Notes under the pieces: generated by a model | Told to the model about the DNA's origin: nothing | Databases searched by the model: none | The model's input: only the letters and a program-made list of their open reading frames with translations | From: TPA_inf: Saccharomyces | Taxonomy: Eukaryota | Length of the DNA: 64,000 nucleotides | Direction of reading: 5' to 3' | Assembly (NCBI GenBank): GCA_000146045.2 | Contig: BK006949.2 | Coordinates: 736,001-800,000, forward strand | In this document: positions 8,689 to 51,428 of the stretch, piece after piece | Layout: each line of letters opens with the position of its first letter | Numbering within the stretch: the stretch's first letter is position 1 | Program-made: the position numbers and the translations under genes

Positions 8689-9573
8689 ATGGATAATTTT
8701 GAAAGTACTGCTGAAGGAAATTTAAGTATAGGAAACAAACGAGTATACGAACTACGAAAAAGAAACTTCCAAAGAAATTTGGTGAATAATTTGAGCTTTC
8801 TCGGGTATGTTTTAATATCATTGGAATATATCAAGTATGATCGTACCGTCTGGACACTTATAACAAGAGCAATAGTGCAATCTCTCATAAGTTCTCCTTT
8901 TCCAAGTGATGCCAAGTTACGTAGGCTAGCGACCCTCGGTGCAGATAATAACACGACGGGGGTTGCAACACTTCCAGGCGGAAGATCTATCAGGTTTCCC
9001 GGAATGTTTGGAACAGAAATGCTTTATAATTCTTCTAGTGAAGCTGAGCAACAAGACCATGATGATACCGCTATTGTGTCCATGAAAAAGCAAATCCGGA
9101 AGTTTTTATTTCATGGTTGCTTATCGTTGAATATGCTTTTCATTATCTTAACAATCCTATTCCCAATTGATTTTTTTGAACCCCTGAGTGGTAGCGAGCC
9201 AGTAGACGATGGCCCTAAGAATACTCCCTCACCCTTTTCCAATTCAGATGGTCTACTTTTGGGTGAGAGAAGAGGTGGGCTTTTTCTACAGATGATCGGA
9301 GAACGGCTACCAAAGAGCAACTTTTCCGGCAATCTTGGATTAGTAATGTTCGAATTTAGCATACTTATTGTACAGTTTACTTTATTTTCACTAACATGTG
9401 TTGTATTGGCAGATTTAGATTTTGAAGAGCCAGAAAGACTAGAACCTGTAAATAGTGATGGCTACGATGGCTCTGTAATAGTTGCACGAATACCATTAAA
9501 TAAAACCATGAATGCCATTTTAAATGACGGCAATATTAATGACAACAATGAGAATGCTAGCAATTCTGTCTAA
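8689..9573 (+). CDS. Poorly characterised membrane protein YPR109W (predicted transmembrane segments).
   Basis: 294-aa ORF, the same length as YPR109W. Hydrophobic stretches ([43 protein letters not shown]). Position between tT(UGU) and RPC40 agrees. Confidence 0.7.
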
Positions 9574-33318: not shown

Positions 33319-33659
33319 TGTTGTATCTCAAAATGAGATATGTCAGTATGACAATACGTCATCCTGAACGTTCATAAAACACATATGAAACAACCTTATA
33401 ACAAAACGAACAACATGAGACAAAACCCGTCCTTCCCTAGCTGAACTACCCAAAAGTATAAATGCCTGAACAATTAGTTTAGATCCGAGATTCCGCGTTT
33501 CCACCACTTAGTATGATTCATATTTTATATAGTATATAAGATAAGTAACATTCCGTGAATTAATCTGATAAACTGTTTTAACAACTGGTTACTTCCCTAA
33601 GACTGTTTATATTAGGATTGTCAAGACACTCCGGTATTACTCGAGCCCGTAATACAACA
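33319..33659 (+). mobile_element. Solo sigma element (Ty3 LTR), about 340 bp.
   Basis: It begins TGTTGTATCTCAAAATGAGATATGTCAGTATGACAATACG and ends ...CTCGAGCCCGTAATACAACA, matching the Ty3 sigma termini. It lies 17 bp from the 5' end of tK(UUU), the canonical Ty3 integration position upstream of Pol III genes. Confidence 0.85.
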
Positions 33660-37874: not shown

Positions 37875-39182
37875 CTACTTAAGATTAAATAGATTTTGAA
37901 AGTTGCTATGCATTTCGGATGTACACCACTTGAAAGTTTGGAAATAAACAGAGCCATACCTTGGTTTCTTGTACTTCAAAATCAATGAATCTAAATGAGT
38001 TTTGGAACTAGCGATGTCTTTGACTAGATCAATGCAGAGAGACTGAAACGCTTCATCGTGTATTGGATCGATACCACCACTGTAATGCTGTAGTGTTCCA
38101 TTCCATAGCTCGTTCTTGTTTCTGTTGGTCATTCTTCTCGCTATATACATTGCCATTGCGCTTACGGTAGATGGAGGTAAATGAATGAATTGGTGGCAGC
38201 AGTAGGCATACTCTAAAATAAACTTACCAATATTTCTATTAACCGGATCGTAATCATCTGCCTTGGAGATCCTCCTTAGGAAATTGAGTGGGTTGGGCCA
38301 ACCAATGTTGAATTCTAAGGAAGTGAGCATGAACATTTCCGCATTTTTTATGTCGTTTTTAGAAGCCGCGCCGTCAGTGATATAAGCGTATTCAGCTAGT
38401 TTGGGCAAATTTACCTCTTCAAATTTTGCCGCGATGAAAAGTGAGGTAACTGCCAATAATTGTAACTTGTTCATCGTAACTTTATTTTTAGCTAAAAATC
38501 TATCCATTAAGTTTATGGATAGGAATAACGTTTCCGGATAGCATTGAAATTTTTCGTGCACCTCTACCAGCCAATCCACTAATATTGTTCTCATGGAAGG
38601 CCTCAAATAATACTTGGACGTTTTGTCGAGTAAATAGTTGTGCGATGGTAACGTTTCTAATTCTCTTCTATATAAAAATGCAAAAATTTCAGCAGAATAT
38701 TCTGCTACCATTGCAGTATCATCTTTTTCAACATAATCTAGGTCCTGCCAGCCTACTATTTCACTCACTCCTTCAGCGTCTATTCTGCGTTTTTTGTTCA
38801 CTATCGAAGCAGCATCATCATCTTCTCCTTCTTCTTCTTCTTCTTCTTCTTGCTCTGCTGCCGTTCGATCGTTATATATCTGTCTTTTTTGAACGGCGCT
38901 AACAATAGGTCTAATGTTTTCTTCTCTTCGTACTTTGGCCGCCTTGCTCCCTGCTACTATTCTCTTGTTCTGGCTTAAAGGATTATTGTTCACTGGTACA
39001 TCTGTTAAAGCCCTTCTTGGTTTAGAATCCTGAACCTGCTGCTTACTAGAGCTGTCATTTTTTGAAAGGGCCCTTTTATTTTGAAGAATCTTTAGGTTTG
39101 AATTGCACAACTGCCTCTCATTTTCATTATAAATCATAGAATTTCTTTTAATACTCTGCTCATGGTCGTGGTTCTCTCCCAT
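37875..39182 (-). CDS. CLB5: S-phase B-type cyclin.
   Basis: 435-aa ORF, the same length as YPR120C. Cyclin box present. An acidic (GAA)n-encoded EEEEEEEEGEDDD tract lies at about 38820-38860. Confidence 0.95.
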   Translation of the reverse strand: MGENHDHEQSIKRNSMIYNENERQLCNSNLKILQNKRALSKNDSSSKQQVQDSKPRRALTDVPVNNNPLSQNKRIVAGSKAAKVRREENIRPIVSAVQKRQIYNDRTAAEQEEEEEEEGEDDDAASIVNKKRRIDAEGVSEIVGWQDLDYVEKDDTAMVAEYSAEIFAFLYRRELETLPSHNYLLDKTSKYYLRPSMRTILVDWLVEVHEKFQCYPETLFLSINLMDRFLAKNKVTMNKLQLLAVTSLFIAAKFEEVNLPKLAEYAYITDGAASKNDIKNAEMFMLTSLEFNIGWPNPLNFLRRISKADDYDPVNRNIGKFILEYAYCCHQFIHLPPSTVSAMAMYIARRMTNRNKNELWNGTLQHYSGGIDPIHDEAFQSLCIDLVKDIASSKTHLDSLILKYKKPRYGSVYFQTFKWCTSEMHSNFQNLFNLK

Positions 39183-39514
39183 TGTTCAGTAAAGGTGTTC
39201 AGCGGCTTTAAATACAGGGAAAAGCGCGTTACTGCTAATTATTAAGCTTATTTTGCTTTGTGTGAGACAACTAATTGGCCGTGAAAAGCTTTAGGTGATT
39301 GAGTCTCTTGAAGTACAAAGACAAAAAGACTTCAATAGATAGACAGAAAAAAAACTTTTCTTGAGAAGCTTAAGAATTAGTTCCAAGTAGCTTCTAATAA
39401 ACCGATGAACGCAAATGAAGTTCCCTTCGCGGTAGATGGCAGTAGCTATCGGCAGTCACTAGGAAAAGTGAGTTTAGCACAGATATGCTGTGGGCGCTAT
39501 CCCAATGTGGGCAA

Positions 39515-39592
39515 AGCGCGTGAACATCACGACGCGCCTTCCCGTTAAATTTTGTACCATCAAGGGCGCGTCTTCACTCGAGATGCGCGTTC
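39515..39592 (-). promoter_or_regulatory. Cluster of MCB-like (ACGCG) MBF elements in the CLB5 promoter.
   Basis: aaaGCGCGTgaa, cGACGCGCc, gGGCGCGTCt and aTGCGCGTt within about 80 bp, 330-410 bp upstream of the CLB5 ATG. CLB5 is a classical MBF (Mbp1/Swi6) G1/S target. Confidence 0.65.
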
Positions 39593-39764
39593 TTTTGCTG
39601 GTTCTTTTCACTGAGGGCACAGAATATGATACCCACAGTATGACAAGTTTTAATCGAGATAGTTTGACGTTCGTTTTTTACTTTGAATATACTCGTAGTC
39701 TTTTTACTTTTTGAGTATAAAAAAAAAATGACTAGCAAAATAAAATTAGTAGTCTAAAAAAGAA

Positions 39765-39836
39765 AGCTCGCACTCAGGATCGAACTAAGGACCAACAGAT
39801 TTGCAATCTGCTGCGCTACCACTGCGCCATACGAGC
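39765..39836 (-). tRNA. tC(GCA): tRNA-Cys (GCA).
   Basis: The reverse complement reads GCTCGTATGGCGCAGTGGTAGCGCAGCAGATTGCAAATCTGTTGGTCCTTAGTTCGATCCTGAGTGCGAGCT. This is a 72-nt match to yeast tRNA-Cys with anticodon GCA. Confidence 0.9.
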
Positions 39837-40092
39837 TTTTGAATTATGGTAATTTTGATTATCCTAGAATGTTATATCTCAATATCTCAATATATTTTGG
39901 ACATCTATGAAACACCCATAAAGCAGCCGCTACCAAACAGACAAGATTCAGTATGTAAGGTAAATACCTTTTTGCACAGTTAAACTACCCAAACTTATTA
40001 AAGCTTGATAAATTACTGAAATTCCACCTTTCAGTTAGATTCAGGCCTCATATAGATTAGATATAGGGTACGTAACATTCTGTCAACCAAGT

Positions 40093-40413
40093 TGTTGGAA
40101 TGAAAGTCTAAAATGTCATCTATTCGGTAGCACTCATGTTACTAGTATACTGTCACATGCGGTGTAACGTGGGGACATAAAACAGACATCAAATATAATG
40201 GAAGCTGAAATGCAAAGATCGATAATGTAATAGGAATGAAACATATAAAACGAAAGGAGAAGTAATGGTAATATTAGTATGTAGAAATACCGATTCAATT
40301 TTGGGGATTCTTATATTCTCGAGAGAATTTCTAGTATAATCTGTATACATAATATTATAGGCTTTACCAACAATGGAATTTCGACAATTATCATATTATT
40401 CACCAATTAATCA
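40093..40413 (+). mobile_element. Solo delta LTR (Ty1/Ty2 class), diverged, about 320 bp.
   Basis: It starts TGTTGGAATGAAAG and contains the delta hallmark TGGAAGCTGAAATGCAAAGATCGATAATGTAATAGGAAT...TTCTCGAG.... It ends ...TTAATCA. It lies about 260 bp upstream (5' side) of tC(GCA). Confidence 0.75.
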
Positions 40414-40424
40414 CAAGTTGGTAA

Positions 40425-40530
40425 TGAGTTTGATAACAAGTTACTTTCTTAACAACGTTAGTATCGTCAAAACACTCGGTTTTACTCGAGCTTGTAGCAC
40501 AATAATACCGTGTAGAGTTCTGTATTGTTC
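40425..40530 (+). mobile_element. Sigma-like (Ty3 LTR 3'-end) fragment adjacent to the delta.
   Basis: GTTACTTTCTTAACAACGTTAGTATCGTCAAAACACTCGGTTTTACTCGAGCTTGTAGCACAA aligns with the sigma 3' end GGTTACTTCCCTAAGACTGTTTATATTAGGATTGTCAAGACACTCCGGTATTACTCGAGCCCGTAATACAA seen at 33590-33659. This suggests nested, decayed LTR insertions at a tRNA hotspot. Confidence 0.5.
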
Positions 40531-41117
40531 TTCTTAGTGCTTGTATATGCTCATCCCGACCTTCCATTTTTTTTTTCTTGGAATCAGTACATAGCAGGTA
40601 TGAGTTGTTAGAGCTGTTACAAGTTACGGTAAACATTTCAACACACCGTTATTTAACGAATTTATTTGAGAAAGTGGTGTATTTTAAGATATATGTTTGG
40701 TTTCGATTGTTGGCAAAGACTATAATATTATGCATATAGGATATACCAAAAATTCTCTCTGAGGATATAGGAATCTACAAAATGAATCTACATTTCATTT
40801 TATTACGTCATATATGAATACTAGTCAATAGATGATAGTTAATTTTTATTCTAGCATATATTTAAGTTTGTTTGCGAAACCCTATGCTCTGTTGTTCGGA
40901 TTTGAAATTTTAAAACTACATTAATGTGTTAGTTTTTCTTTCTTTCTTTCTTTGTCTTGACGTGATTTGGACTTCTGTCTTGCATTCGCGTCCATTCATC
41001 TGACCCAATATTCCTTTTGGTTTTGTTATCCTTATAAAAAGAAAGGAAGCTTCTTAGAGGGAAAAAAATGATGAAGAGTAATGCCAAAATATAAATAAAT
41101 AAATAAATATGAAAATC

Positions 41118-41564
41118 ATTTTCTATTTTTAATAGAATAAGAAGAGCATCTTAAGATTACAATTTCAAGAAATAGTTTACACAGTATATCCAATAACTCC
41201 AATAAACTACTTTCCTATACAAATTTCTATGGTGGGATTAATAGTAAAACTTCTGTACTTCTCTAATTCACCAAGAAATTAAGGTAAACATCTGGTAAGC
41301 ACTATCCAGCTTTTTGCTATTACACATATGGCTTTTCTGCAATCATTTCTTCCCATTTTGTCTCAAGCCGTTAGTCTTGAAACCACAGGCGGAGTAGAGT
41401 TACTTGATGCGGTATTTTACATGCCTTTTTTCACTGCAAAAAAAATGAAATACATATTTACACGATTTGCAGGACAGTTTACGATAGTGAGTATGCAGAA
41501 TAGTTAACACCTTTGTTTTATCCTTTTGTGTCTTAATTATATGATATAAAGGCGCCTGGCGTTA
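41118..41564 (+). repeat. Left copy of a ~450-bp direct repeat; the partner is at 45551-46014.
   Basis: About 90% identical to 45551-46014 over about 450 bp, e.g. AGAAATAGTTTACACAGTATATCCAATAACTCCAATAAACTACTTTCCTATACAAATTTC...GTAAACATCTGGTAAGCACTATCCA...TTTGTTTTATCCTTTTGTGTCTT.ATTATAT.ATATAAA.G.GCCTGGCGTTA. Confidence 0.85.
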
Positions 41565-41845
41565 TCGGATAGTAATAGATGCTAGTTATCAACATTTCAC
41601 AATTGAAGGAAATAAAGTTGAAGTACTCAACAAAAACTTACTTCAGAATTAAATTTTTGGGGGGAACATAGGCATCCTATGACAGGTGACCACAAGCCCC
41701 TCAACGCAATCTAATATTTTACAAAGTGGTAAAATTCTTTCGTTCTTCGTTTTAATATACAGTCATTTATTGATTCTATTACATTAATATTCCTACGCTT
41801 CGGCTCACATAATTAACAGGACTTCGAGTCCGTTAAACTTGGGAT

Positions 41846-42197
41846 CAACTAATTTCTACGGATTAGTGCTTATGCCTGATGTACTGCCATATATGGTGTT
41901 ATGATATCACATAAATGACGAGAAACGGCCATCGAATTTAGTGGAAGCTGAAATGTAAGGATTAATAATGTAATAGGATAGTAAGTGCCGACGTGTGAAA
42001 CGAAAGAACGAATTGTAATTTTACCATGTAAAGCTGCCCACTCTTTTTTGGGGATTCCTTTACCTACGAGAGGGCCTGTTAGAATATATGCAATAAAGCC
42101 ATTCTTATCAGAGATAGACTCCAAACAACCACCTCAAAACCCACTTTTTCCTCAAGTCTGCCTAAACTCAAAAATTATATGATAGATGTTCTCAGGA
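41846..42197 (+). mobile_element. Diverged solo delta-like LTR.
   Basis: ...ATCAACTAATTTCTACGG...CCATATATGGTGTTATGATATCAC...AATTTAGTGGAAGCTGAAATGTAAGGATTAATAATGTAATAGGATAG...GGGGATTCCTTTACC... ending ...GTTCTCA. It is homologous to the Ty1 delta core but heavily diverged. Confidence 0.6.
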
Positions 42198-42582
42198 GAA
42201 TTGGGTATTCAGAAGAACATTCGTAAGACAGGCCAAAGTAATATGAACTGCCTCTGCTTAATGGAATAACGTGATTTTTGTACCAAATTGCCTATTTCAG
42301 ATTCGGCGTGCGCTTCCTTTATTCGCATAGCACGCAGAGTACAATGTGGCATTAAACCCTATTGTCCTGCACGGAAGATCCTTGCAGGAATCAAATACTG
42401 CCTTTCACTTTGCAACCTCTTAATCACATAGTAGCACCTATAGACACGTATTCTATTCTCTATTATAATGTTGTTCAAGATTGGATATTGGAAACCTTTA
42501 GAGCAGTGCAATTTGGCAAGAGATAATTCCAGTATTTAAACAGTGGATAAATATACAATTTCCAAAGCAGTATGCCTTTCCT

Positions 42583-44301
42583 ATGGTTATCATCCTCCTA
42601 GGTCTTTGCACATTAGGTTTTCCAAGAACAGCATTCTGTCCCTCCATAATGACAAATTCTACAGTGAGTATTAACACGCCTCCACCATATCTTACTCTAG
42701 CTTGTAATGAAAAATTACCAACAGTTATGTCAATTGCTGGATCAGACTCAAGTGGTGGAGCCGGTGTTGAAGCTGATATTAAGACTATCACCGCACACAG
42801 ATGTTATGCCATGACATGCGTCACTACTTTGACTGCTCAAACTCCAGTGAAGGTGTACGGCGCTCAAAATATACCAAAGAAAATGGTATCTCAAATATTA
42901 GACGCCAATTTACAGGACATGAAATGTAATGTTATTAAGACTGGCATGCTTACGGTGGATGCAATCGAAGTCTTGCACGAAAAACTTTTGCAACTTGGTG
43001 AAAATAGACCCAAGTTAGTAATTGATCCAGTTCTTTGCGCCGCTTCTGACTCTTCTCCAACTGGAAAGGATGTGGTTAGCTTAATCATAGAAAAAATTTC
43101 TCCTTTTGCCGACATTTTAACTCCTAACATTTCAGACTGTTTCATGTTACTGGGCGAGAACAGAGAAGTTAGCAAACTACAAGACGTTCTTGAAATCGCG
43201 AAAGACCTTTCTAGAATCACCAATTGCTCCAATATTTTAGTGAAGGGAGGCCACATTCCATGTGACGATGGAAAAGAAAAGCATATTACTGACGTTCTTT
43301 ACTTAGGTGCTGAACAAAAATTCATCACTTTTAAGGGCCAATTCGTTAATACTACACGCACTCATGGCGCTGGATGCACACTGGCTTCTGCTATAGCATC
43401 TAACTTGGCTCGCGGTTATTCTCTTTCCCAATCTGTTTATGGTGGTATTGAGTATGTACAGAATGCCATCGCAATTGGCTGTGACGTTACCAAGAAAGCT
43501 GTGAAGGTTGGACCAATTAATCACGTTTACGCCGTAGAGATTCCATTAGAAAAAATGCTCACCGACGAATGCTTTACAGCATCTGATGCTGTACCTAAGA
43601 AGCCAATCGAAGGTTCTCTTGACAAAATCCCTGGGGGTAGCTTCTTTAATTATCTGATAAATCATCCTAAAGTCAAGCCGCATTGGGATGCCTACGTGAA
43701 TCACGAATTTGTTAAAAGAGTGGCAGACGGCACATTGGAACGCAAAAAGTTCCAGTTTTTTATTGAACAAGATTATTTATACTTAATTGATTATGTGAGA
43801 GTTTGCTGCGTCACAGGTAGTAAATCTCCAACTCTAGAAGATCTAGAAAAGGACCTTGTTATTGCTGATTGCGCCCGTAATGAACTAAATGAACATGAAA
43901 GAAGATTAAGAGAAGAATTTGGAGTTAAGGACCCAGATTACTTACAAAAAATTAAGAGAGGTCCCGCATTAAGGGCCTACTGTCGTTACCTAATTGACAT
44001 TTCCAGAAGAGGAAACTGGCAAGAAATAGTTGTAGCCCTCAACCCTTGTCTAATGGGTTATGTTTATGCTGTAGACAAAGTTAAGGATAAGATAACAGCA
44101 GCAGAGGGTTCTATTTATAGTGAATGGTGTGATACTTGCGCGTCTTCATTTTGCTACCAAGCTGTGCTTGAAGGTGAAAGGCTCATGAATCACATCTTGG
44201 AAACATATCCTCCAGATCAACTTGATTCTTTGGTGACGATCTTTGCAAGAGGTTGTGAATTAGAAACTAATTTCTGGACCGCCGCCATGGAATACGAATG
44301 A
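42583..44301 (+). CDS. THI22: Bifunctional HMP-P kinase (ThiD) / thiaminase II (TenA) family protein, paralogue of THI20/THI21.
   Basis: 572-aa ORF, the same length as YPR121W. An N-terminal ThiD-like domain (GSDSSGGAGVEADIKT...GGH) and a C-terminal TenA-like domain. Confidence 0.85.
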   Translation: MVIILLGLCTLGFPRTAFCPSIMTNSTVSINTPPPYLTLACNEKLPTVMSIAGSDSSGGAGVEADIKTITAHRCYAMTCVTTLTAQTPVKVYGAQNIPKKMVSQILDANLQDMKCNVIKTGMLTVDAIEVLHEKLLQLGENRPKLVIDPVLCAASDSSPTGKDVVSLIIEKISPFADILTPNISDCFMLLGENREVSKLQDVLEIAKDLSRITNCSNILVKGGHIPCDDGKEKHITDVLYLGAEQKFITFKGQFVNTTRTHGAGCTLASAIASNLARGYSLSQSVYGGIEYVQNAIAIGCDVTKKAVKVGPINHVYAVEIPLEKMLTDECFTASDAVPKKPIEGSLDKIPGGSFFNYLINHPKVKPHWDAYVNHEFVKRVADGTLERKKFQFFIEQDYLYLIDYVRVCCVTGSKSPTLEDLEKDLVIADCARNELNEHERRLREEFGVKDPDYLQKIKRGPALRAYCRYLIDISRRGNWQEIVVALNPCLMGYVYAVDKVKDKITAAEGSIYSEWCDTCASSFCYQAVLEGERLMNHILETYPPDQLDSLVTIFARGCELETNFWTAAMEYE

Positions 44302-45550
44302 TAGTTACAATATTTTTAACAGAATATATAAAATACATATACAGAAATGATAAACTATAAACGCAAAAGATTAGCGATACGAAAAAAGGATTTCTCGCTA
44401 TTATATCAATTTATAAAGAGATCCTTTGGAAATATAAATTATGTTCATTTCATTTTTTCAACTTCTAGAAGGATGACTAACTATTGTTTCCATTTGCTAG
44501 CATGGTAAATTAATACATTTTTGAATTTGCTGCTAGGGTACAATACCATGCAATGTTTATAATATAAATCAAAGTGACAGAGATTCCTAAAAGCTAAAAC
44601 AAATCCATTGATAATATAATAGTAGGTTGGTCAATTCACCGCAGATTCAATGTAAGTATTGATACTCCATAAATGTTAACTTCAGGTTGATATTCGTTAC
44701 AAAAATCTTAGTTTGCTTTTCATTACTATCTGAACGGAATGCTCAACATTTTTCTTATTCTACAATTGTACAATGTCACGTAAACAGTTTGATTTGTGTA
44801 TTTACAGTGGAAACATTTTACTTGTTGGCAATAGTACATGCGCAGATAATCAAAAACCATTGTTTCCGACATTATTTCTGACAATTGCTTGAATTTGCTG
44901 AACACTTTTCGAGGTACATTCTGATAAAGAGTGCATTATTAGTTATTTAGAGTATATTAAGACATCTTCTCGAAGATATATAAATTCGTAAAGGAAACAA
45001 AAATTTCGGGATAACAAAAAAGTTTCTTCTTTTTACGTATTAAATGGTCTATTCATCGATCCTATTTCACTATCAATCCTATTATATTATCAACTTTTGC
45101 ATTTCTGCTTCCACCAAAGTCGACGGCTGTTTCTCATCGTTTATGTAATATCATAACGCATGTATGACATTATATCAGTGGCATGAGCGCTAGTCCATGA
45201 AATAGGAGTTTAACTCCAACATACGGAACATTCGCATTATCGCACACGTAAGACTCGATATATTAAGGAAGGAATTTCCGAGTTGGATTAATAAAGGAAA
45301 AATAAAATATAGTGTTGGAAATATAGTTGCCTCAGAATAATATCAATATAATATTAAAACGTATATAGTTAGATACCCGGTATTATTCGAGTACGCATTA
45401 ATTCAGCAGTATGACTTTCTGTGCCTGCTTATATATTGTAACCGTATGTTGTTCTACCTTAAAAATTTGCTAAATTGAAGGAATTGACTATCGTCACTGA
45501 AGAGTATTCGTATTATGGTATTATGATACATTGTCTAAAAAAAGGATACC

Positions 45551-46014
45551 ATTTTTCTTCAATAGAACAAGAAGAGAATCTAAGGACACCATTTCGAGAA
45601 ATAGTTTACACAGTATATCCAATAACTCCAATAAACTACTTTCCTATACAAATTTCCGATGGTTGGATTAATAGTAAAACTTCTATACTTCTTTCATCCA
45701 TCAAGAAATTAAGGTAAACATCTGGTAAGCACTATCCAACTTTTTTCTGTTACACATATGGTTTTTCTGCAATCATTTCTTCCCACTTTGCATGAGTAAG
45801 TGTCCCATTTTGTCTCAAGCCGTTAATCTTGAAACCGCAGGCGGAGTTACTTGATGCGGTATTTTACATGCCTTTTTTCACTGCAAGAAAAAAATGAAAC
45901 ACTTATTTACACGATTTTCAGGATAGTTTACGCTGGTGAGTATGCAGAACAGTTAACACCTTTGTTTTATCCTTTTGTGTCTTGATTATATAATATAAAT
46001 GTGCCTGGCGTTAA
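45551..46014 (+). repeat. Right copy of the ~450-bp direct repeat. It ends about 30 bp before the AXL1 ATG and carries an extra 17-bp insertion (gcatgagtaagtgtccc).
   Basis: See the left copy. The overlapping 80-aa ORF at 45475-45717 lies within the repeat and is probably spurious. Confidence 0.85.
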
Positions 46015-46044
46015 AAAATAGCAACTGAATAAGTTTTTTTACTG

Positions 46045-49000
46045 ATGTCCTTGAGAGAAGTAACTAATTATGAAGTCTCGTTTTACATCCCGTTGTCTTA
46101 CAGCAACAGGACTCATAAAGTTTGTAAACTGCCAAACGGAATTTTAGCATTAATAATATCGGATCCAACAGATACTTCAAGCTCATGCTCACTGACTGTT
46201 TGCACAGGTTCCCATAACGATCCAAAGGATATTGCCGGTTTGGCGCACCTTTGTGAGCACATGATTCTTTCTGCCGGTTCCAAAAAATACCCTGATCCTG
46301 GTTTATTCCACACACTAATCGCAAAAAACAACGGCTCTCAAAATGCCTTTACCACAGGGGAGCAAACGACTTTTTATTTTGAATTGCCCAATACTCAAAA
46401 TAACGGCGAATTTACATTTGAATCTATCTTAGATGTGTTTGCCTCATTCTTCAAAGAACCGCTCTTCAACCCTTTACTGATAAGCAAGGAGATATATGCA
46501 ATACAAAGTGAGCATGAGGGAAACATATCATCAACCACAAAAATATTCTACCACGCAGCAAGAATATTGGCCAATCCCGACCATCCTTTCAGTCGCTTTT
46601 CCACTGGGAACATACACTCGTTATCTAGCATTCCACAACTGAAAAAAATAAAACTAAAGAGCTCATTAAACACTTACTTCGAAAATAATTTTTTTGGGGA
46701 GAATATAACCTTGTGCATAAGGGGACCGCAGTCTGTTAATATTCTTACGAAACTAGCTCTATCAAAATTTGGCGATATAAAACCCAAAAGCGCTGTAAAG
46801 GAAAGGAGTATATCGATTAGGACGAGGTCATTTCGAAGATCGAAGTCTTTAAAAAAACGCCAAGATTCTTCCAAAAACGACTACAGTGACTTGAAAACCT
46901 TTAAAATACTGAACACAACGTGGGAAAAAAAATACAAAAATACGATGTGTTTTCAACAATTTCCTGAATGCAATTCGATATTTATCAATTCAAATAAGGT
47001 ACCTATAATGAGACTTCTCTTTCCTGTTAGCGATAAAAACACTCGGTTTACAAAGGATGACATTAAAATATACAGTCATCTTTGGTGTGAACTTTTCGGC
47101 GATGAGTCTCCAGGATCTTTGAGCTATTACTTAGCTTCAAAAGGCTGGCTCACAGGCTGTTTTGCCTTTACCTCAGAATTCGCTATTGGTGACATAGGAT
47201 TAATTTTGGAATTAGAACTGACAAACAGTGGCTGGGAAAATATTAAGAGAATTACGACAATAGTACTTAATAGACTCTTGCCTTCCTTTTACGTAATGAA
47301 CATCGATTACTTAATCACTTTTTTGAAAGAACAGAATTTGATCGACCTCGTTAGCTTTCTGTACCAAAGTTCAGAGGATCTTCCAATGGAAGAGTGCTCA
47401 AAATTAAGCGGTATTCTTCAGGACGATTTAGAATGTTTAACCCCCCCTAATATATTCAAAGGATTTAAATCTCTTATAGAAATAGATGATCCCAACATCG
47501 AAAAATATGAAAACACAAAGGCCAATATACAATGGTGGACAGGGCAAGCTATTAAGTTCCAAAATTTTTTAAAATCTTTCATGAATCATGACAACATGCG
47601 CCTTTTACTCTTAGGGAATATAAAATCTGGTAATATATTTGATAAAATGAAAAATAAAAGTGATATATGCACCGATTTTTTCTATGAATTTGAGTATTAT
47701 ACGGCAAACGTTCATCTAGCAAGTGATAATAAATTTCATTCAAACAGCTCGTATGAATTTAATTTTCCCACAGGTAATCTTTTTTTACCAGATTGCGTCA
47801 GCGATCCTTTAAAACTACAACAGCTCTTCTTAGAATGCTCGTTAAAATCGAAATTTGCTACGCTTAGACCTCAAATTTATAGTGAGCCCACTAGGACAAA
47901 GCCTCAATTAGTCAGTGAGAACCAGAATTATGAGATGTGGATCTTAAAAGAAGACCCAAATTTTGCCTCAGACAATAAATCCGTCGTATCATTTGAAGTT
48001 TTGGGGTTAGGCATCAAACCTAGTCCGGAGGCAACAATCCACCTGGAAGTACTAGCACAGGCATTATTTATCATCACCTCTTCATTCCTTTATCCCGCTC
48101 TGAGAATTGGTTACACATATGAGATTGCCTCATCTAGTAAGGGCAACGTAACACTGCGATTTACTATTTCTGGATTCCCTGAGGGTGTTTTCACAATAGT
48201 AAAGACGTTCGTGGATACGCTAAAACTTATTGCAACAGATCCAACGTTTCTTTCTAAAGATACCTTGAGAAAGGCAAGGATTTTAGTTAGAAATAAATAC
48301 AAGAACGCGTCATCGGACAACTGCGTGAAGCTAGCTAGCGTTGGATTGCTGATTGTTTTAGAGAAATATATATGGACTTTAGAGGATAGAATTAATGCAT
48401 TAGAGCTTACCGAGTTGGAATCCTTCGAAAAATTTTGTTTTTTATTCTGGAGGAATCCTAAACATTTGGTCTTGTTCATGCAGGGAAGCCTTGAATATGC
48501 TGACGCAATCAACCGTTACTTAAATAACAATTTTACGCAGCACCTAAAAATCAGCAATGAAGGGAGCAAACCGACCATACGTCTCTACCCTCCTCCCAGT
48601 ACAAAAGATCTAGATCAAGGCACAAATGCCTTTATATCATATAATGGTCACCAGGATGATCCCAACAATAGTATTGTGTATTTTATTCAGACTGCACAAA
48701 GAGATGACATCAAAAATCTGACACTAACCTTTCTTACCGAATATCTATTTTCACTAACGCTAGTGCCTGATCTAAGAAATAAAAAGCAAATTGGGTACAT
48801 TGTTTTGGGAGGACTCAGGGTTTTAACAGACACTGTTGGGATTCATATAACCGTAATGTCTGGCAGCTCGGGGCACAATCTGGAAACTAGGATCAATGAG
48901 TACTTATCTTACTTGCAGCTGCAGGTGCTAAATAGATTCACCGAGTTTGATTTTCGAAGGATACTTCTAGAGCCGTTCTTAAATCTTTTAAAACAGAACA

Positions 49001-49671
49001 GTACGAAACAGTTTGAAGGGTCGGCTGGTCCTGTAGACCTATTAAATGAGATAGTGGCAAATGTGCAAAATGGTGATAATTACACTCTCAACAATAAACA
49101 AATGAGACAACATAGGAAGGTAAGAAATAAAATTGCGGAAGGAAGGCTTAATTTTCAAGAAGATCATGAAATGATTGATATCTCATTTTTGCAAAAATTA
49201 ACTCTAAAGAAATATTTAGCATTCTTCGAGTCCAAAATCTCTATATATTCCGCTCAAAGAAGTAAGCTATCAATAATGATCACAAGTCCAATGGCAGAGA
49301 AGGAAATTGCAAGCAGGAAAATGTTCCTTCAGCTAGAGGCCTTTCTGAAAATAAACGGATTCGCCATAAAAAATGAAGACTTGAAGAAAATTGTCGAACA
49401 TTCAAAGGGAAATCCTATTTTACTTGTAAAGAACCTTTTTACTTATTTTCGTAGGAGAAATGAAGTTTTCAAGCTCGGAACCGTTGTATTGCAGGAAATA
49501 TTGAAAATCATCGGAATGAATCTTAAGCAGAGATACGGCTCTATATTAGGGTTTTCTTCCCAAGATGGTGAAGGACAAGAAATAGAAAAATTTTGGAACA
49601 ACGACACAAGTCCGATTGTTCCTCTTCAGGAGCTTCCTGAACCAAACTTTTTCCGCAAGGCCGCATTTTGA
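46045..49671 (+). CDS. AXL1: M16A-family (insulin-degrading-enzyme-like) metalloprotease required for a-factor processing and axial budding.
   Basis: 1208-aa ORF, the same length as YPR122W. Inverted zinc-binding motif HxxEH...E (HLCEHMILSAGSKKYP). Confidence 0.9.
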   Translation: MSLREVTNYEVSFYIPLSYSNRTHKVCKLPNGILALIISDPTDTSSSCSLTVCTGSHNDPKDIAGLAHLCEHMILSAGSKKYPDPGLFHTLIAKNNGSQNAFTTGEQTTFYFELPNTQNNGEFTFESILDVFASFFKEPLFNPLLISKEIYAIQSEHEGNISSTTKIFYHAARILANPDHPFSRFSTGNIHSLSSIPQLKKIKLKSSLNTYFENNFFGENITLCIRGPQSVNILTKLALSKFGDIKPKSAVKERSISIRTRSFRRSKSLKKRQDSSKNDYSDLKTFKILNTTWEKKYKNTMCFQQFPECNSIFINSNKVPIMRLLFPVSDKNTRFTKDDIKIYSHLWCELFGDESPGSLSYYLASKGWLTGCFAFTSEFAIGDIGLILELELTNSGWENIKRITTIVLNRLLPSFYVMNIDYLITFLKEQNLIDLVSFLYQSSEDLPMEECSKLSGILQDDLECLTPPNIFKGFKSLIEIDDPNIEKYENTKANIQWWTGQAIKFQNFLKSFMNHDNMRLLLLGNIKSGNIFDKMKNKSDICTDFFYEFEYYTANVHLASDNKFHSNSSYEFNFPTGNLFLPDCVSDPLKLQQLFLECSLKSKFATLRPQIYSEPTRTKPQLVSENQNYEMWILKEDPNFASDNKSVVSFEVLGLGIKPSPEATIHLEVLAQALFIITSSFLYPALRIGYTYEIASSSKGNVTLRFTISGFPEGVFTIVKTFVDTLKLIATDPTFLSKDTLRKARILVRNKYKNASSDNCVKLASVGLLIVLEKYIWTLEDRINALELTELESFEKFCFLFWRNPKHLVLFMQGSLEYADAINRYLNNNFTQHLKISNEGSKPTIRLYPPPSTKDLDQGTNAFISYNGHQDDPNNSIVYFIQTAQRDDIKNLTLTFLTEYLFSLTLVPDLRNKKQIGYIVLGGLRVLTDTVGIHITVMSGSSGHNLETRINEYLSYLQLQVLNRFTEFDFRRILLEPFLNLLKQNSTKQFEGSAGPVDLLNEIVANVQNGDNYTLNNKQMRQHRKVRNKIAEGRLNFQEDHEMIDISFLQKLTLKKYLAFFESKISIYSAQRSKLSIMITSPMAEKEIASRKMFLQLEAFLKINGFAIKNEDLKKIVEHSKGNPILLVKNLFTYFRRRNEVFKLGTVVLQEILKIIGMNLKQRYGSILGFSSQDGEGQEIEKFWNNDTSPIVPLQELPEPNFFRKAAF

Positions 49672-50207: not shown

Positions 50208-51428
50208 ATGGAAGGTATGAATATGGGTAGCAGCATGAATATGGACGCCATGTCTAGTGCATCCAAGACAGTAGCATCGAGTATGGCGTCGATGAGCATG
50301 GATGCGATGTCTAGTGCCAGCAAAACGATATTATCGAGCATGTCATCGATGAGCATGGAAGCGATGTCCAGTGCGAGCAAAACGTTGGCGTCGACTATGT
50401 CGTCAATGGCAAGTATGTCGATGGGAAGCAGTTCAATGTCAGGTATGTCTATGTCGATGAGCAGTACACCAACAAGCTCCGCCAGTGCACAGACAACTTC
50501 TGATTCTAGCATGTCAGGCATGTCAGGTATGTCATCGTCTGATAACAGTAGCTCTTCAGGGATGGATATGGACATGAGTATGGGAATGAACTATTATCTG
50601 ACTCCCACATATAAAAACTATCCAGTTTTGTTTCACCATTTGCATGCAAACAATAGTGGTAAGGCTTTCGGTATTTTCTTATTATTTGTTGTGGCTGCTT
50701 TCGTCTACAAACTACTGCTTTTCGTTAGTTGGTGCCTTGAAGTTCACTGGTTTAAAAAATGGGACAAGCAAAATAAATATTCCACTTTACCTTCAGCAAA
50801 CTCCAAAGACGAAGGAAAACATTATGACACAGAGAATAATTTTGAAATTCAAGGTTTACCTAAGCTGCCAAATTTATTAAGCGATATATTTGTTCCATCT
50901 TTAATGGATCTCTTTCATGACATTATAAGGGCGTTCTTAGTATTTACCTCTACGATGATTATTTATATGTTGATGCTTGCTACCATGTCTTTTGTTTTAA
51001 CATACGTTTTTGCTGTAATTACTGGGTTAGCTTTATCGGAAGTCTTCTTCAATAGATGCAAAATAGCCATGCTAAAGAGGTGGGACATCCAAAGAGAAAT
51101 TCAGAAAGCGAAGAGCTGTCCTGGCTTCGGTAACTGCCAATGTGGTAGACATCCCGAACCCAGCCCTGATCCAATTGCTGTTGCCGATACCACTTCCGGA
51201 AGTGATCAAAGTACTCGCCTGGAAAAGAACAACGAATCTAAAGTTGCGATTTCCGAAAATAATCAAAAGAAAACACCTACACAAGAAGAGGGATGTAATT
51301 GTGCCACAGACTCAGGAAAGAATCAAGCAAACATAGAGCGCGACATCCTTGAGAATTCCAAGTTGCAGGAACAGTCCGGGAATATGGATCAAAACTTACT
51401 TCCGGCCGAAAAATTCACTCATAACTAA
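50208..51428 (+). CDS. CTR1: High-affinity plasma-membrane copper transporter.
   Basis: The ORF is trimmed to MEGMNMGSS, giving 406 aa, the length of YPR124W. The N-terminus has Met-rich MxxM/MxM motifs, and an MxxxM transmembrane motif follows. Confidence 0.9.
   Translation: MEGMNMGSSMNMDAMSSASKTVASSMASMSMDAMSSASKTILSSMSSMSMEAMSSASKTLASTMSSMASMSMGSSSMSGMSMSMSSTPTSSASAQTTSDSSMSGMSGMSSSDNSSSSGMDMDMSMGMNYYLTPTYKNYPVLFHHLHANNSGKAFGIFLLFVVAAFVYKLLLFVSWCLEVHWFKKWDKQNKYSTLPSANSKDEGKHYDTENNFEIQGLPKLPNLLSDIFVPSLMDLFHDIIRAFLVFTSTMIIYMLMLATMSFVLTYVFAVITGLALSEVFFNRCKIAMLKRWDIQREIQKAKSCPGFGNCQCGRHPEPSPDPIAVADTTSGSDQSTRLEKNNESKVAISENNQKKTPTQEEGCNCATDSGKNQANIERDILENSKLQEQSGNMDQNLLPAEKFTHN

Follow-up and report, generated by a model that had tools for sequence, protein, structure and literature searches.

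Organisation of the locus

The window, a stretch of 64,000 nucleotides of Saccharomyces DNA (GenBank assembly GCA_000146045.2, contig BK006949.2, positions 736,001 to 800,000 of the forward strand), contains AXL1 and, upstream of it, THI22 and decayed delta LTRs lying between two copies of a sequence of about 450 bp. The main features, numbered from the first nucleotide of the window, are as follows.

39764-39837, minus strand: tRNA-Cys(GCA), at the same position in S. mikatae, S. kudriavzevii and S. arboricola
40093-40390, plus strand: delta d1, in the Ty/delta cluster by tRNA-Cys
40668-40856, minus strand: delta d2, in the same cluster
40857-41116, plus strand: segment a-F, ancestral far-upstream AXL1 sequence, found today solely left of the left unit
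41117-41564, plus strand: left repeat unit (U_L), duplicated AXL1 promoter region, with weak similarity on to 41575
41168-41226, plus strand: longest perfect block shared by the units, 59 bp, with its partner at 45597-45655
41582-41698, plus strand: AXL1 coding relic (CDS nucleotides ~565-695), adjoining the left unit after an internal deletion of ~590 bp
41703-41823, minus strand: d3, decayed delta LTR fragment abutting the AXL1 relic (67%, delta positions 99-220)
41844-42150, plus strand: d4, decayed delta LTR, left edge of the THI21-derived segment (66%, delta positions 14-328)
42151-42582, plus strand: THI22 promoter, THI21-derived by homology to THI21 upstream sequence
42583-44301, plus strand: THI22 ORF, 572 aa, Pfam Phos_pyr_kin and TENA_THI-4
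44302-44890, plus strand: THI22 downstream region, similar to the THI21 3' flank over its initial ~85 bp only
44891-45221, minus strand: d5, decayed delta LTR, inverted relative to d4 (62%, delta positions 1-319)
45222-45549, plus strand: segment y, from d5 to the right unit, in S. cerevisiae, S. paradoxus and S. mikatae only
45550-46013, plus strand: right repeat unit (U_R), AXL1 promoter/5' intergenic region, with similarity on to 46024
45781-45802, plus strand: 22-bp segment without counterpart in U_L in the alignment of the two units
46045-49671, plus strand: AXL1 ORF, 1208 aa, M16 peptidase

In local alignment the two units are in direct orientation, with a start-to-start distance of 4433 bp. 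They agree in 406 of 439 ungapped columns (92.5%, or about 86% when gap columns are counted), with six indels, and the alignment score of 318 compares with 11.8±1.3 (maximum 16) for shuffled sequences, which bears out the two direct copies of ~450 bp and ~90% identity described in the first-pass annotation. The right copy had been placed about 30 bp before the AXL1 start, and U_R does end 20-31 bp upstream of the ATG at 46045. The 17-bp insertion attributed to the right copy has to be corrected in both size and direction. The segment measures 22 bp, the indel is flanked by TCCCA...TCCCA, and in a multi-species alignment the segment is found in both S. paradoxus copies, S. mikatae and S. kudriavzevii; the event is therefore a deletion in U_L of S. 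cerevisiae and not an insertion in U_R. A decayed delta (41844-42150, plus strand) and the whole THI22 ORF (42583-44301) do lie between the copies, as had been claimed. Where a single delta-like LTR had been proposed, d4 stands, but three delta pieces are present (d3, d4 and d5), as judged against a solo delta reference from L010. The tRNA-Cys(GCA) gene is likely to have been the magnet for the Ty/delta cluster of d1 and d2.

The abundance of LTR debris in the region raises the question of whether the 450-bp unit is itself merely one of a dispersed family, for instance an LTR or other mobile element that has escaped recognition. This has a negligible probability: the unit has no significant delta similarity, no copies beyond the two were found in the 64-kb window and none at the THI21 loci, and a 47-mer from it occurs at this locus only in two metagenome assemblies containing S. 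cerevisiae. Moreover, a single copy lies at the same AXL1-adjacent place in six species.

The right unit as the AXL1 promoter

The right copy is the ancestral, working AXL1 promoter, kept in place. Its proximal ~170 bp are conserved beside AXL1 in six species, the conservation extending to S. paradoxus, S. mikatae, S. kudriavzevii, S. arboricola and an S. uvarum-like contig; the last four have a single unit and no second copy. Three sites are predicted in the units.

41405-41423, plus strand: a1-α2-type operator of the left unit, TGATGCGGTATTTTACATG, consensus match
45852-45870, plus strand: a1-α2-type operator of the right unit, ~175 bp upstream of the AXL1 ATG, consensus match
45894-45901, plus strand: PRE-like site ATGAAACA, pheromone-response-element consensus match

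Besides its predicted a1-α2 operator and PRE-like site, U_R has a putative TATA box. The site ATGAAACA, a putative PRE by its match to the consensus, is intact in all AXL1-adjacent copies and mutated in both left copies, reading ATGAAATA in S. cerevisiae (41445-41452) and ATGAAAAA in S. paradoxus. The pattern TGATGY-N8-ACATG occurs twice in the 64-kb window, against an expected 0.05 occurrences, and the operator is unchanged across all six aligned sequences. The suggestion that the right copy supplies the AXL1 promoter with its haploid-specific control is supported by the six-species conservation, by the invariant predicted operator and by the report of AXL1 among known direct a1-α2 targets (PMC517709).

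The left unit as a dead AXL1 stub

The left unit is a dead AXL1 5' stub, from which the ATG and ~590 bp are gone. The relic behind it (41582-41698, ~120 bp) shows homology both with 46609-46739 and with the AXL1 genes of four species (z = 20-53 versus shuffles), and the S. paradoxus relic has an identical deletion junction. The presence of AXL1 coding sequence behind U_L means that the stretch first duplicated measured no less than 1.15 kb; the AXL1 promoter and at least the first ~700 bp of the CDS would have been duplicated so as to bracket the cassette. No description of this relic was found in the searchable literature.

Segment a-F has counterparts just ahead of the lone unit in S. mikatae, S. 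kudriavzevii, S. arboricola and the S. uvarum-like contig; the homology is weak but recurrent (z = 2-6.6) and lies in AT-rich sequence. Segment y matches S. mikatae 8765-9000 (z = 5-10; weak and likewise AT-rich), while comparison with S. kudriavzevii, S. arboricola and the S. uvarum-like contig gave no supported match.

The THI22 cassette

The THI22 cassette is a DNA-level copy of THI21 with ~430 bp of promoter, bounded by deltas. Its promoter is 61% identical to the upstream region of S. cerevisiae THI21 (L025 9561-9904) and 68% to that of S. mikatae THI21 (L026 9492-9904), and the 3' region is 71% identical to the THI21 3' flank (L026 11677-11739); no homologue was found for the downstream region beyond its first ~85 bp. 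Elements d4 and d5 bracket the gene as an inverted repeat pair (I1), and a plus-strand delta is present at the S. cerevisiae THI21 locus at the matching position relative to the promoter (L025 9287-9477). A neighbour-joining tree puts THI22 within the THI21 clade, grouped with its counterparts at this locus from S. paradoxus and S. mikatae, and the gene has been reported as a recent gain (PMC2675101, PMC10182736). A processed retrocopy was also considered and is ruled out, since the promoter was copied along with the gene.

Age of the duplication and concerted evolution

The duplication took place after the split of S. kudriavzevii and before that of S. cerevisiae and S. paradoxus. The S. paradoxus contig (L011, one protein of which is identical to SPAR_P03730) is collinear with positions 40861-46044 of the window and has the same architecture. 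In S. mikatae, THI22 is inverted and only one unit is present, and there is no THI gene at this locus in S. kudriavzevii, S. arboricola or the S. uvarum-like contig. In a tree of the relics, those of S. cerevisiae and S. paradoxus form a pair (92% bootstrap), S. kudriavzevii AXL1 falls outside all the other sequences (100%), and the alternatives for the timing of the duplication relative to the S. mikatae split are poorly separated (61% versus 25%). The origin of THI22 falls in the same interval (PMC10182736, together with our own synteny and tree).

Within this framework, ectopic gene conversion keeps the units alike within each species, although the units are older than the species. Sixty sites group the copies by species, as (cerL,cerR)|(parL,parR), against four for the orthologous grouping, and each within-species pair has 100% bootstrap. 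In the unconstrained 5' half the two S. cerevisiae copies are 88-91% identical, compared with 68-69% for the right copies of S. cerevisiae and S. paradoxus. Identity between units is 86-92% within species and 70-78% between species. The same difference would be produced by young, independent duplications in S. cerevisiae and S. paradoxus, for which conversion would be unneeded. That reading is very improbable: the left unit lies between orthologous flanks in both species (a-F on one side; on the other the relic with the same junction, d3 and d4), the relics group by orthology with 92% bootstrap, and two events with the same ends and the same secondary deletion are very unlikely. Because the copies are alike within species despite orthologous flanks, the identity of ~90% reflects continuing conversion rather than young age and therefore gives no date for the duplication. 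The right copy of one strain (L008) has an apparent left-type patch at 45657-45701, a possible conversion tract, in a region that also contains runs of N.

Origin of the repeats

The units are most probably the remains of an AXL1 5' duplication around a delta-bounded THI21 copy, modified since by conversion and deletion. The duplication and the arrival of THI22 would probably both stem from one rearrangement, either LTR-mediated or replication-based. The earlier proposal that the repeats are the footprint of this delivery is largely supported by the data, namely the delta bounds, the THI21-like promoter, the AXL1 relic and the shared time window. Against it, S. mikatae has THI22 with one unit, so that the duplication may postdate delivery.

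[quoted passage not shown] S. mikatae, with THI22, one unit and an intact a-F-U-AXL1 order, would represent the earlier state, and in that species segment y adjoins the far-upstream AXL1 sequence on its left side. In the relic tree, too, the relic clade is at best weakly placed with S. mikatae AXL1. However, a tandem duplication plus two deletions, a minimum of three events, would be required to turn an S. mikatae-like order into an S. cerevisiae-like one, whereas the reverse route takes two delta-delta events, which would explain every S. mikatae delta: a d4×d5 inversion that would flip THI22 and a d2×d3 deletion that would remove the left unit. To the debit of the reverse route, an S. cerevisiae-like ancestor also implies that a-F was lost next to the right unit before S. 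cerevisiae and S. paradoxus separated. In its favour, the relic directly adjoins a delta at the edge of the cassette, which ties the duplication breakpoint to the cassette and favours joint delivery.

Alleles lacking THI22

Inter-repeat recombination has removed THI22 in some strains. Crossing-over, single-strand annealing or pop-out between the units takes out the 4.43-kb cassette and leaves one chimeric unit, recreating the pre-insertion gene order with the AXL1 promoter intact. In S. cerevisiae CP006177.2 (L022), a short-read-era chromosome assembly, the gap between CLB5 and AXL1 is 2439 bp as against 6863 bp, and it holds one chimeric unit, left-type to 41161 and right-type from 45596, so that the switch lies between 41161 and 41228 and spans the 59-bp identical block. 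In a second S. paradoxus lineage, represented by k-mer-based short-read contigs (L029/L030, isolates SRR10997048/SRR34587153) with an AXL1 CDS 96.9% identical to that of L011, a-F, one mosaic unit and AXL1 are contiguous without the 4.4-kb cassette.

These single-unit alleles are unlikely to be products of assembly collapse or retained pre-insertion haplotypes. The switch in L022 covers a block at which an assembler might mis-join, and L029 and L030 were assembled from k-mers; nevertheless, at least seven other CP006xxx assemblies, apparently from the same project, resolve both copies. In two samples, L029 and L030 each extend without interruption from the left flank, across the unit, to AXL1; a De Bruijn contig would normally end at a repeat instead of joining across it. 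A retained haplotype would fit the gene order of the single-unit alleles, which is that of S. kudriavzevii, but L022 is cleanly left-type and then right-type relative to the modern S. cerevisiae copies, a pattern not expected of an ancestral haplotype 5-10 million years old. Inter-repeat deletion also agrees with an independent report of THI22 copy-number variation, in which the gene is among those setting cheese strains apart (PMC5995190). The prediction that THI22 would be deleted or copy-number-variable among strains has thus been realised in CP006177.2, in the second S. paradoxus lineage (in short-read data) and in that report. THI22 is present at all 10 of the CLB5 places listed, 24 contigs having been read, and deletion is rare in this sample.

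Relation to known systems

The locus is a new example of known processes, in which repeats both make and unmake young genes. As in the yeast direct-repeat deletions that yield solo LTRs or plasmid pop-out, direct repeats lie a few kilobases apart, the deletion allele carries a hybrid repeat with the pre-insertion order restored, and the crossover lies in the longest identical block. Here, however, the repeats are a host promoter and 5' gene fragment rather than transposon ends, and they are only ~90% identical. Recombination at such identity is homeologous and sensitive to mismatch repair, and deletion is therefore expected to be infrequent.

LTR- or replication-mediated duplications in Saccharomyces likewise give a new gene with its own promoter and edges at deltas by a tRNA gene, and the donor THI21 has a delta at the matching edge. 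Here 1.15 kb or more of host sequence is duplicated to either side of the insert, which is atypical of simple delta-delta ectopic recombination and points to a putative tandem-duplication or template-switch component. Concerted evolution of yeast paralogues and repeat families shares with this locus a likeness within species that exceeds orthologous likeness, while flanks outside the tract follow orthology. The tract here differs in being ~450 bp long and mostly non-coding, with its partner 4.4 kb away, and in pairing a functional promoter with a dead relic, so that conversion could either repair the promoter or import damage. Finally, the sequence at 41582-41698 resembles other yeast gene relics in being a short, non-coding, intergenic remnant, in this case of AXL1; its parent is not a lost gene but stands intact 4.4 kb away.

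The CLB5-AXL1 interval and its direct repeats

The repeated sequence lies between CLB5 and AXL1, in an interval whose features are listed below; decayed delta LTRs (d1-d5) were mapped with the solo delta of one S. cerevisiae strain (L010) as probe.

Features of the CLB5-AXL1 interval (window positions, strand, description, basis)
37875-39182, minus strand, CLB5, B-type cyclin (ORF and domain)
39764-39837, minus strand, tRNA-Cys(GCA) (tRNA and Rfam scan)
40093-40390, plus strand, decayed delta d1 (delta probe)
40668-40856, minus strand, decayed delta d2 (delta probe)
41703-41823, minus strand, decayed delta d3 (delta probe)
41844-42150, plus strand, decayed delta d4 (delta probe)
42583-44301, plus strand, THI22, 572-aa HMP-kinase/TENA protein (ORF and domain)
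44891-45221, minus strand, decayed delta d5 (delta probe)
46045-49671, plus strand, AXL1, 1208-aa M16 peptidase (ORF and domain)

The gene names of the first-pass annotation agree with the ORFs and domains found in the window, and chromosome-scale S. cerevisiae assemblies carry identical THI22 and AXL1 proteins. The two direct copies of about 450 bp that it described, about 90% identical, were recovered by local alignment as a left unit (41117-41564) and a right unit (45550-46013), with 406 of 439 ungapped columns identical (92.5%), six indels and a score of 318 vs 11.8±1.3 for shuffles, a likeness well beyond chance. Weaker similarity extends past the unit ends to 41575 and 46024, and the gap between the right copy and the AXL1 ATG is 20-31 bp. 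The reported 17-bp insertion in the right copy is in fact a 22-bp segment (45781-45802) that was deleted from the S. cerevisiae left copy, since it is kept in both S. paradoxus copies and in the one copy that S. mikatae and S. kudriavzevii each have; the missing bases are flanked by TCCCA repeats.

The possibility that the unit is a dispersed repeat or belongs to an LTR family was rejected for the window, the THI21 loci and two metagenome assemblies. The window contains two copies of the unit and the two THI21 loci none, and the unit has no significant similarity to delta and is absent from the delta-probe matches; a 47-mer from the unit matched this locus only in two yeast-containing metagenome assemblies. 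Copies at many unlinked loci, which the annotation had named as the mark of a generic repeat, were therefore not a feature of the sequences examined (window, THI21 loci and both metagenome assemblies). An Rfam scan of 39000-46500 matched tRNA-Cys alone, so the unit contains no known RNA family.

Origin of the THI22 cassette

The inverted pair d4/d5 brackets THI22. A delta-like LTR and the whole of THI22 do lie between the copies, as first described, but the single LTR of that description is replaced by three (d3, d4 and d5). The approximately 430 bp that precede THI22 match the sequence before THI21 in both S. cerevisiae (L025) and S. mikatae (L026) by homology, as do approximately 65-85 bp downstream the THI21 3' flank. 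Since the THI21 promoter was copied along with the gene, THI22 is a DNA-level copy, and its origin as a processed retrocopy is ruled out by the donor's non-coding flanks. At S. cerevisiae THI21 a plus-strand delta lies directly upstream of the promoter (L025 9287-9477), as d4 does before the THI22 promoter; at S. mikatae THI21 the delta is not adjacent to the promoter. In a neighbour-joining tree, the THI genes found here in S. cerevisiae, S. paradoxus and S. mikatae cluster within the THI21 clade. These findings agree with published statements, which count THI21 and THI22 among the genes gained after the WGD (PMC2675101).

Nothing convincing was found in the rest of the window or at the THI21 loci as a source of the distal THI22 downstream region or of the segment 'y' (45222-45549) that follows d5. 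An ancestral origin of 'y' was considered on the basis of a match of the S. cerevisiae segment to an S. uvarum-like intergenic region (z = 5.8), and was rejected because S. paradoxus 'y' gave z = -1.0 and S. mikatae 'y' z = -0.4, in AT-rich sequence. Neither 'y' nor the 260 bp left of the left unit (a-F, 40857-41116) could be accepted as a decayed delta (z <= 2.6).

At the donor locus, CLN2 and APM1 flank THI21 in both species, but the S. mikatae gene (SMKI_06G3640) is oriented opposite to that of S. cerevisiae and has a delta-containing spacer of approximately 3.5 kb on either side (L026 vs L025). The donor locus, like THI22, has therefore undergone an inversion. S. cerevisiae THI22 is 572 aa long from the first ATG, with 42583-42648 as the extension (L015, L043 and L011 compared). 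In some annotations, and in the THI21 proteins and those of S. paradoxus and S. mikatae, the start lies 22 codons further on (550-551 aa); the extra N-terminal stretch may reflect how the gene was annotated and not genuine protein.

An AXL1 relic and the identity of the original copy

Immediately beyond the left unit, 41582-41698 is homologous to AXL1 coding nucleotides 565-695, with z = 20-53 against AXL1 of four species. The left copy is thus an AXL1 5' stub, comprising promoter and coding sequence and lacking about 590 bp that include the ATG, and the duplicated block originally spanned at least 1.15 kb. The right end of this block adjoins d3.

S. kudriavzevii (L014), S. arboricola (L027) and an S. 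uvarum-like contig (L028) carry tRNA-Cys, some delta debris, one unit and AXL1, and their CLB5-AXL1 interval is free of THI genes. These three loci retain the proximal approximately 170-220 bp of the unit as one copy directly before AXL1, and its position in species devoid of a THI gene at this locus identifies the right copy as the ancestral AXL1 promoter. Segment a-F shows weak, repeated homology to sequence upstream of the single unit in the same three loci; the sequence that precedes the right copy shows none. As judged from these alignments, the ancestral left junction is kept by the left copy and the ancestral right junction by the right copy, which is expected if an insertion divided a contiguous AXL1 upstream region and duplicated the unit. 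A transposon target-site duplication was discounted as the source of the unit pair: the Ty1 duplication is made by integrase and fixed at 5 bp, whereas a host block of at least 1.15 kb is duplicated here, and a genuine local Ty insertion shows 5 bp (GATTT, 40899-40903).

Age of the duplication and the S. mikatae arrangement

The S. paradoxus locus L011, one protein of which is identical to SPAR_P03730, is collinear with window 40861-46044 and contains the left unit, an AXL1 relic that shares the S. cerevisiae deletion junction, d3/d4, THI22, d5, 'y', the right unit and AXL1. The relics of S. cerevisiae and S. paradoxus group together (92% bootstrap) and S. kudriavzevii AXL1 falls outside all other sequences (100%), placing the duplication before the cerevisiae-paradoxus split and after the S. 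kudriavzevii split.

In S. mikatae, THI22 (SMKI_16G2745) lies on the opposite strand and is flanked by delta fragments; after these come 'y', far-upstream AXL1 sequence, one unit and AXL1. This order could be derived from an S. cerevisiae-like one by an inversion between the inverted repeats d4 and d5 and a deletion between the direct repeats d2 and d3, which would have removed the left unit and relic; the outcome of both steps agrees with the S. mikatae order in every delta. An alternative is that the AXL1 5' region was duplicated after THI22 had been delivered. The relic tree does not order the two events. Passage from an S. mikatae-like to an S. cerevisiae-like arrangement takes more steps than the reverse, and a later duplication is considered rather doubtful.

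Concerted evolution of the two units

Although the duplication is older than the species split, the units group by species, and the relic and collinear flanks group by orthology.

Identity between units (L and R, left and right; cer, S. cerevisiae; par, S. paradoxus)
cerL-cerR: 90.7%
parL-parR: 86.4%
all cross-species unit pairs: 73-78%

Sixty sites favour the grouping (cerL,cerR)|(parL,parR) and four favour orthology, and each within-species pair has 100% bootstrap support. In the unconstrained 5' half of the unit, cerL-cerR identity is 88-91% vs 68-69% for cerR-parR. The one reading consistent with these comparisons is that ectopic gene conversion has acted repeatedly, and within the unit only. 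Because of this conversion, the identity of about 90% gives no date for the duplication, and without the cross-species comparison it would pass for the mark of a recent event.

Within S. cerevisiae, the left copy of several strains contains single sites of the right type. In addition, the locus L008 (GCA_000568055.1, 12968-13430) has eight consecutive left-type sites in the right unit (45657-45701), which may represent a conversion tract of 45-143 bp or may be an assembly artefact, the locus containing 337 Ns. These mixed sites are suggestive of ongoing conversion, with the proviso that L008 is gapped nearby.

Deletion alleles lacking THI22

The annotation had predicted that recombination between the repeats would delete THI22 and the LTR in some strains, and single-repeat alleles were found in two species, all in short-read-derived assemblies. 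An S. cerevisiae chromosome located through its exact AXL1 protein (L022; GCA_000977355.3, CP006177.2) has a CLB5-AXL1 distance of 2439 vs 6863 bp, lacks THI22, d3-d5 and the relic, and retains a single hybrid unit. The flank and first 16 diagnostic columns of this unit are left-type (to 41161), and from 45596 every further diagnostic column, the 22-bp segment among them, is right-type. The longest identical block, of 59 bp (41168-41226), falls inside the crossover interval. In a second S. paradoxus lineage, represented by two sequencing runs (L029/L030) and with an AXL1 CDS 96.9% identical to that of L011, the left flank, one mosaic unit and AXL1 are contiguous. The deletion therefore seems to have occurred independently in S. 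cerevisiae and S. paradoxus.

THI22 has been listed among the copy-number-variable genes that set cheese strains apart, in which thiamine-biosynthesis genes are described as under-represented (PMC5995190). A CLB5 look-up over 24 contigs returned no further deletion allele, THI22 being present at each of 10 places among the matches listed. None was seen in the metagenome contigs carrying the unit, all three of which have the standard layout (one ending inside the left unit), and the reciprocal product, with three units and two cassettes, was not seen among the S. cerevisiae loci inspected.

As a separate observation, one S. cerevisiae strain (L019, GCA_000977055.4, 4539-6257) carries a THI22 with a single-base change from the reference, C1576T, which creates a stop at codon 526 and cuts off the 47 C-terminal residues. 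Taken with the deletion alleles, the truncation is compatible with relaxed constraint on THI22.

Promoter elements within the unit

The most conserved part of the unit, TTGATGCGGTATTTTACATG, is invariant in six sequences from four species. It fits the consensus of the a1-α2 operator, with half-sites TGATG(T/C) and ACATG and a spacing of 8 bp. The pattern TGATGY-N8-ACATG has two matches in the 64-kb window, exactly in the two unit copies (41405-41423 and 45852-45870), vs 0.05 expected, and N9 spacing yields none. AXL1 is given as a known and verified direct a1-α2 target in PMC517709. Approximately 25 bp downstream of the operator lies ATGAAACA, intact in every AXL1-adjacent copy, and a TATA-like element follows further downstream (45987-45999). 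ATGAAACA fits the pheromone-response-element consensus. The suggestion that haploid-specific control of AXL1 may reside in the repeated sequence is thus supported by motif content and conservation.

In the left copies this PRE-like site has been lost independently, by mutation to ATGAAATA in S. cerevisiae and ATGAAAAA in S. paradoxus. The left copy resembles a relic that conversion has refreshed in part. Its operator and TATA box are kept in both S. cerevisiae and S. paradoxus. The left unit may, though this is judged unlikely, still be an a1-α2-repressed promoter or boundary element driving haploid-specific transcription across the delta elements towards THI22, or producing an ncRNA. Were the left unit active, THI22 expression would be cell-type-dependent and the left unit under selection.

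Significance

The ingredients of this locus are all known, namely LTR-associated DNA-level duplication beside a tRNA gene, a partial duplicate or gene relic, concerted evolution through ectopic conversion and direct-repeat deletion, and the current understanding of these mechanisms is unchanged. The origin and copy-number variability of THI22 are likewise in the literature already. In the searchable literature, no description was found of the repeat pair, AXL1 relic, concerted evolution or chimeric deletion junction, nor any paper naming THI22 and AXL1 together. What the locus offers is the life cycle of a young gene at base-pair resolution: THI22 was gained beside a tRNA/Ty hotspot, the same event probably left behind an incomplete copy of AXL1 next to it, and the duplicate now mediates recurrent THI22 loss in two species. 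The repeats also account for the presence/absence polymorphism of THI22. Conversion from the dead left copy could bring variation into the AXL1 promoter, and the second unit may confound short-read mapping or promoter-swap constructs at AXL1.

Neighbouring rearrangements

A polymorphic Ty site lies approximately 215 bp left of the left unit at 40899-40903, where the window has the empty site. At the same site, L006 (2356-8316) carries a full 5961-bp Ty with identical LTRs and L010 (7985-8317) a solo delta with the 5-bp duplication GATTT. If the window is taken as chrXVI 736001-800000, two published events presumably fall at window positions of approximately 40100-40150, in d1. [quoted passage not shown] This intergenic region looks like a hotspot of rearrangement. 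The flanks of d1 resemble a stretch approximately 6.5 kb upstream (39860-40086 vs 33324-33559 and 40429-40502 vs 33577-33657; 62-70%), probably reflecting another decayed LTR family at both places.

Downstream of AXL1, an ORF with a Ctr domain (copper-transporter-like) encodes 397, 406 or 416 aa among strains, and BLAST reveals overlapping self-similar pieces within it at approximately 50235-50453; the length variation and self-similarity together point to a variable internal tandem repeat.
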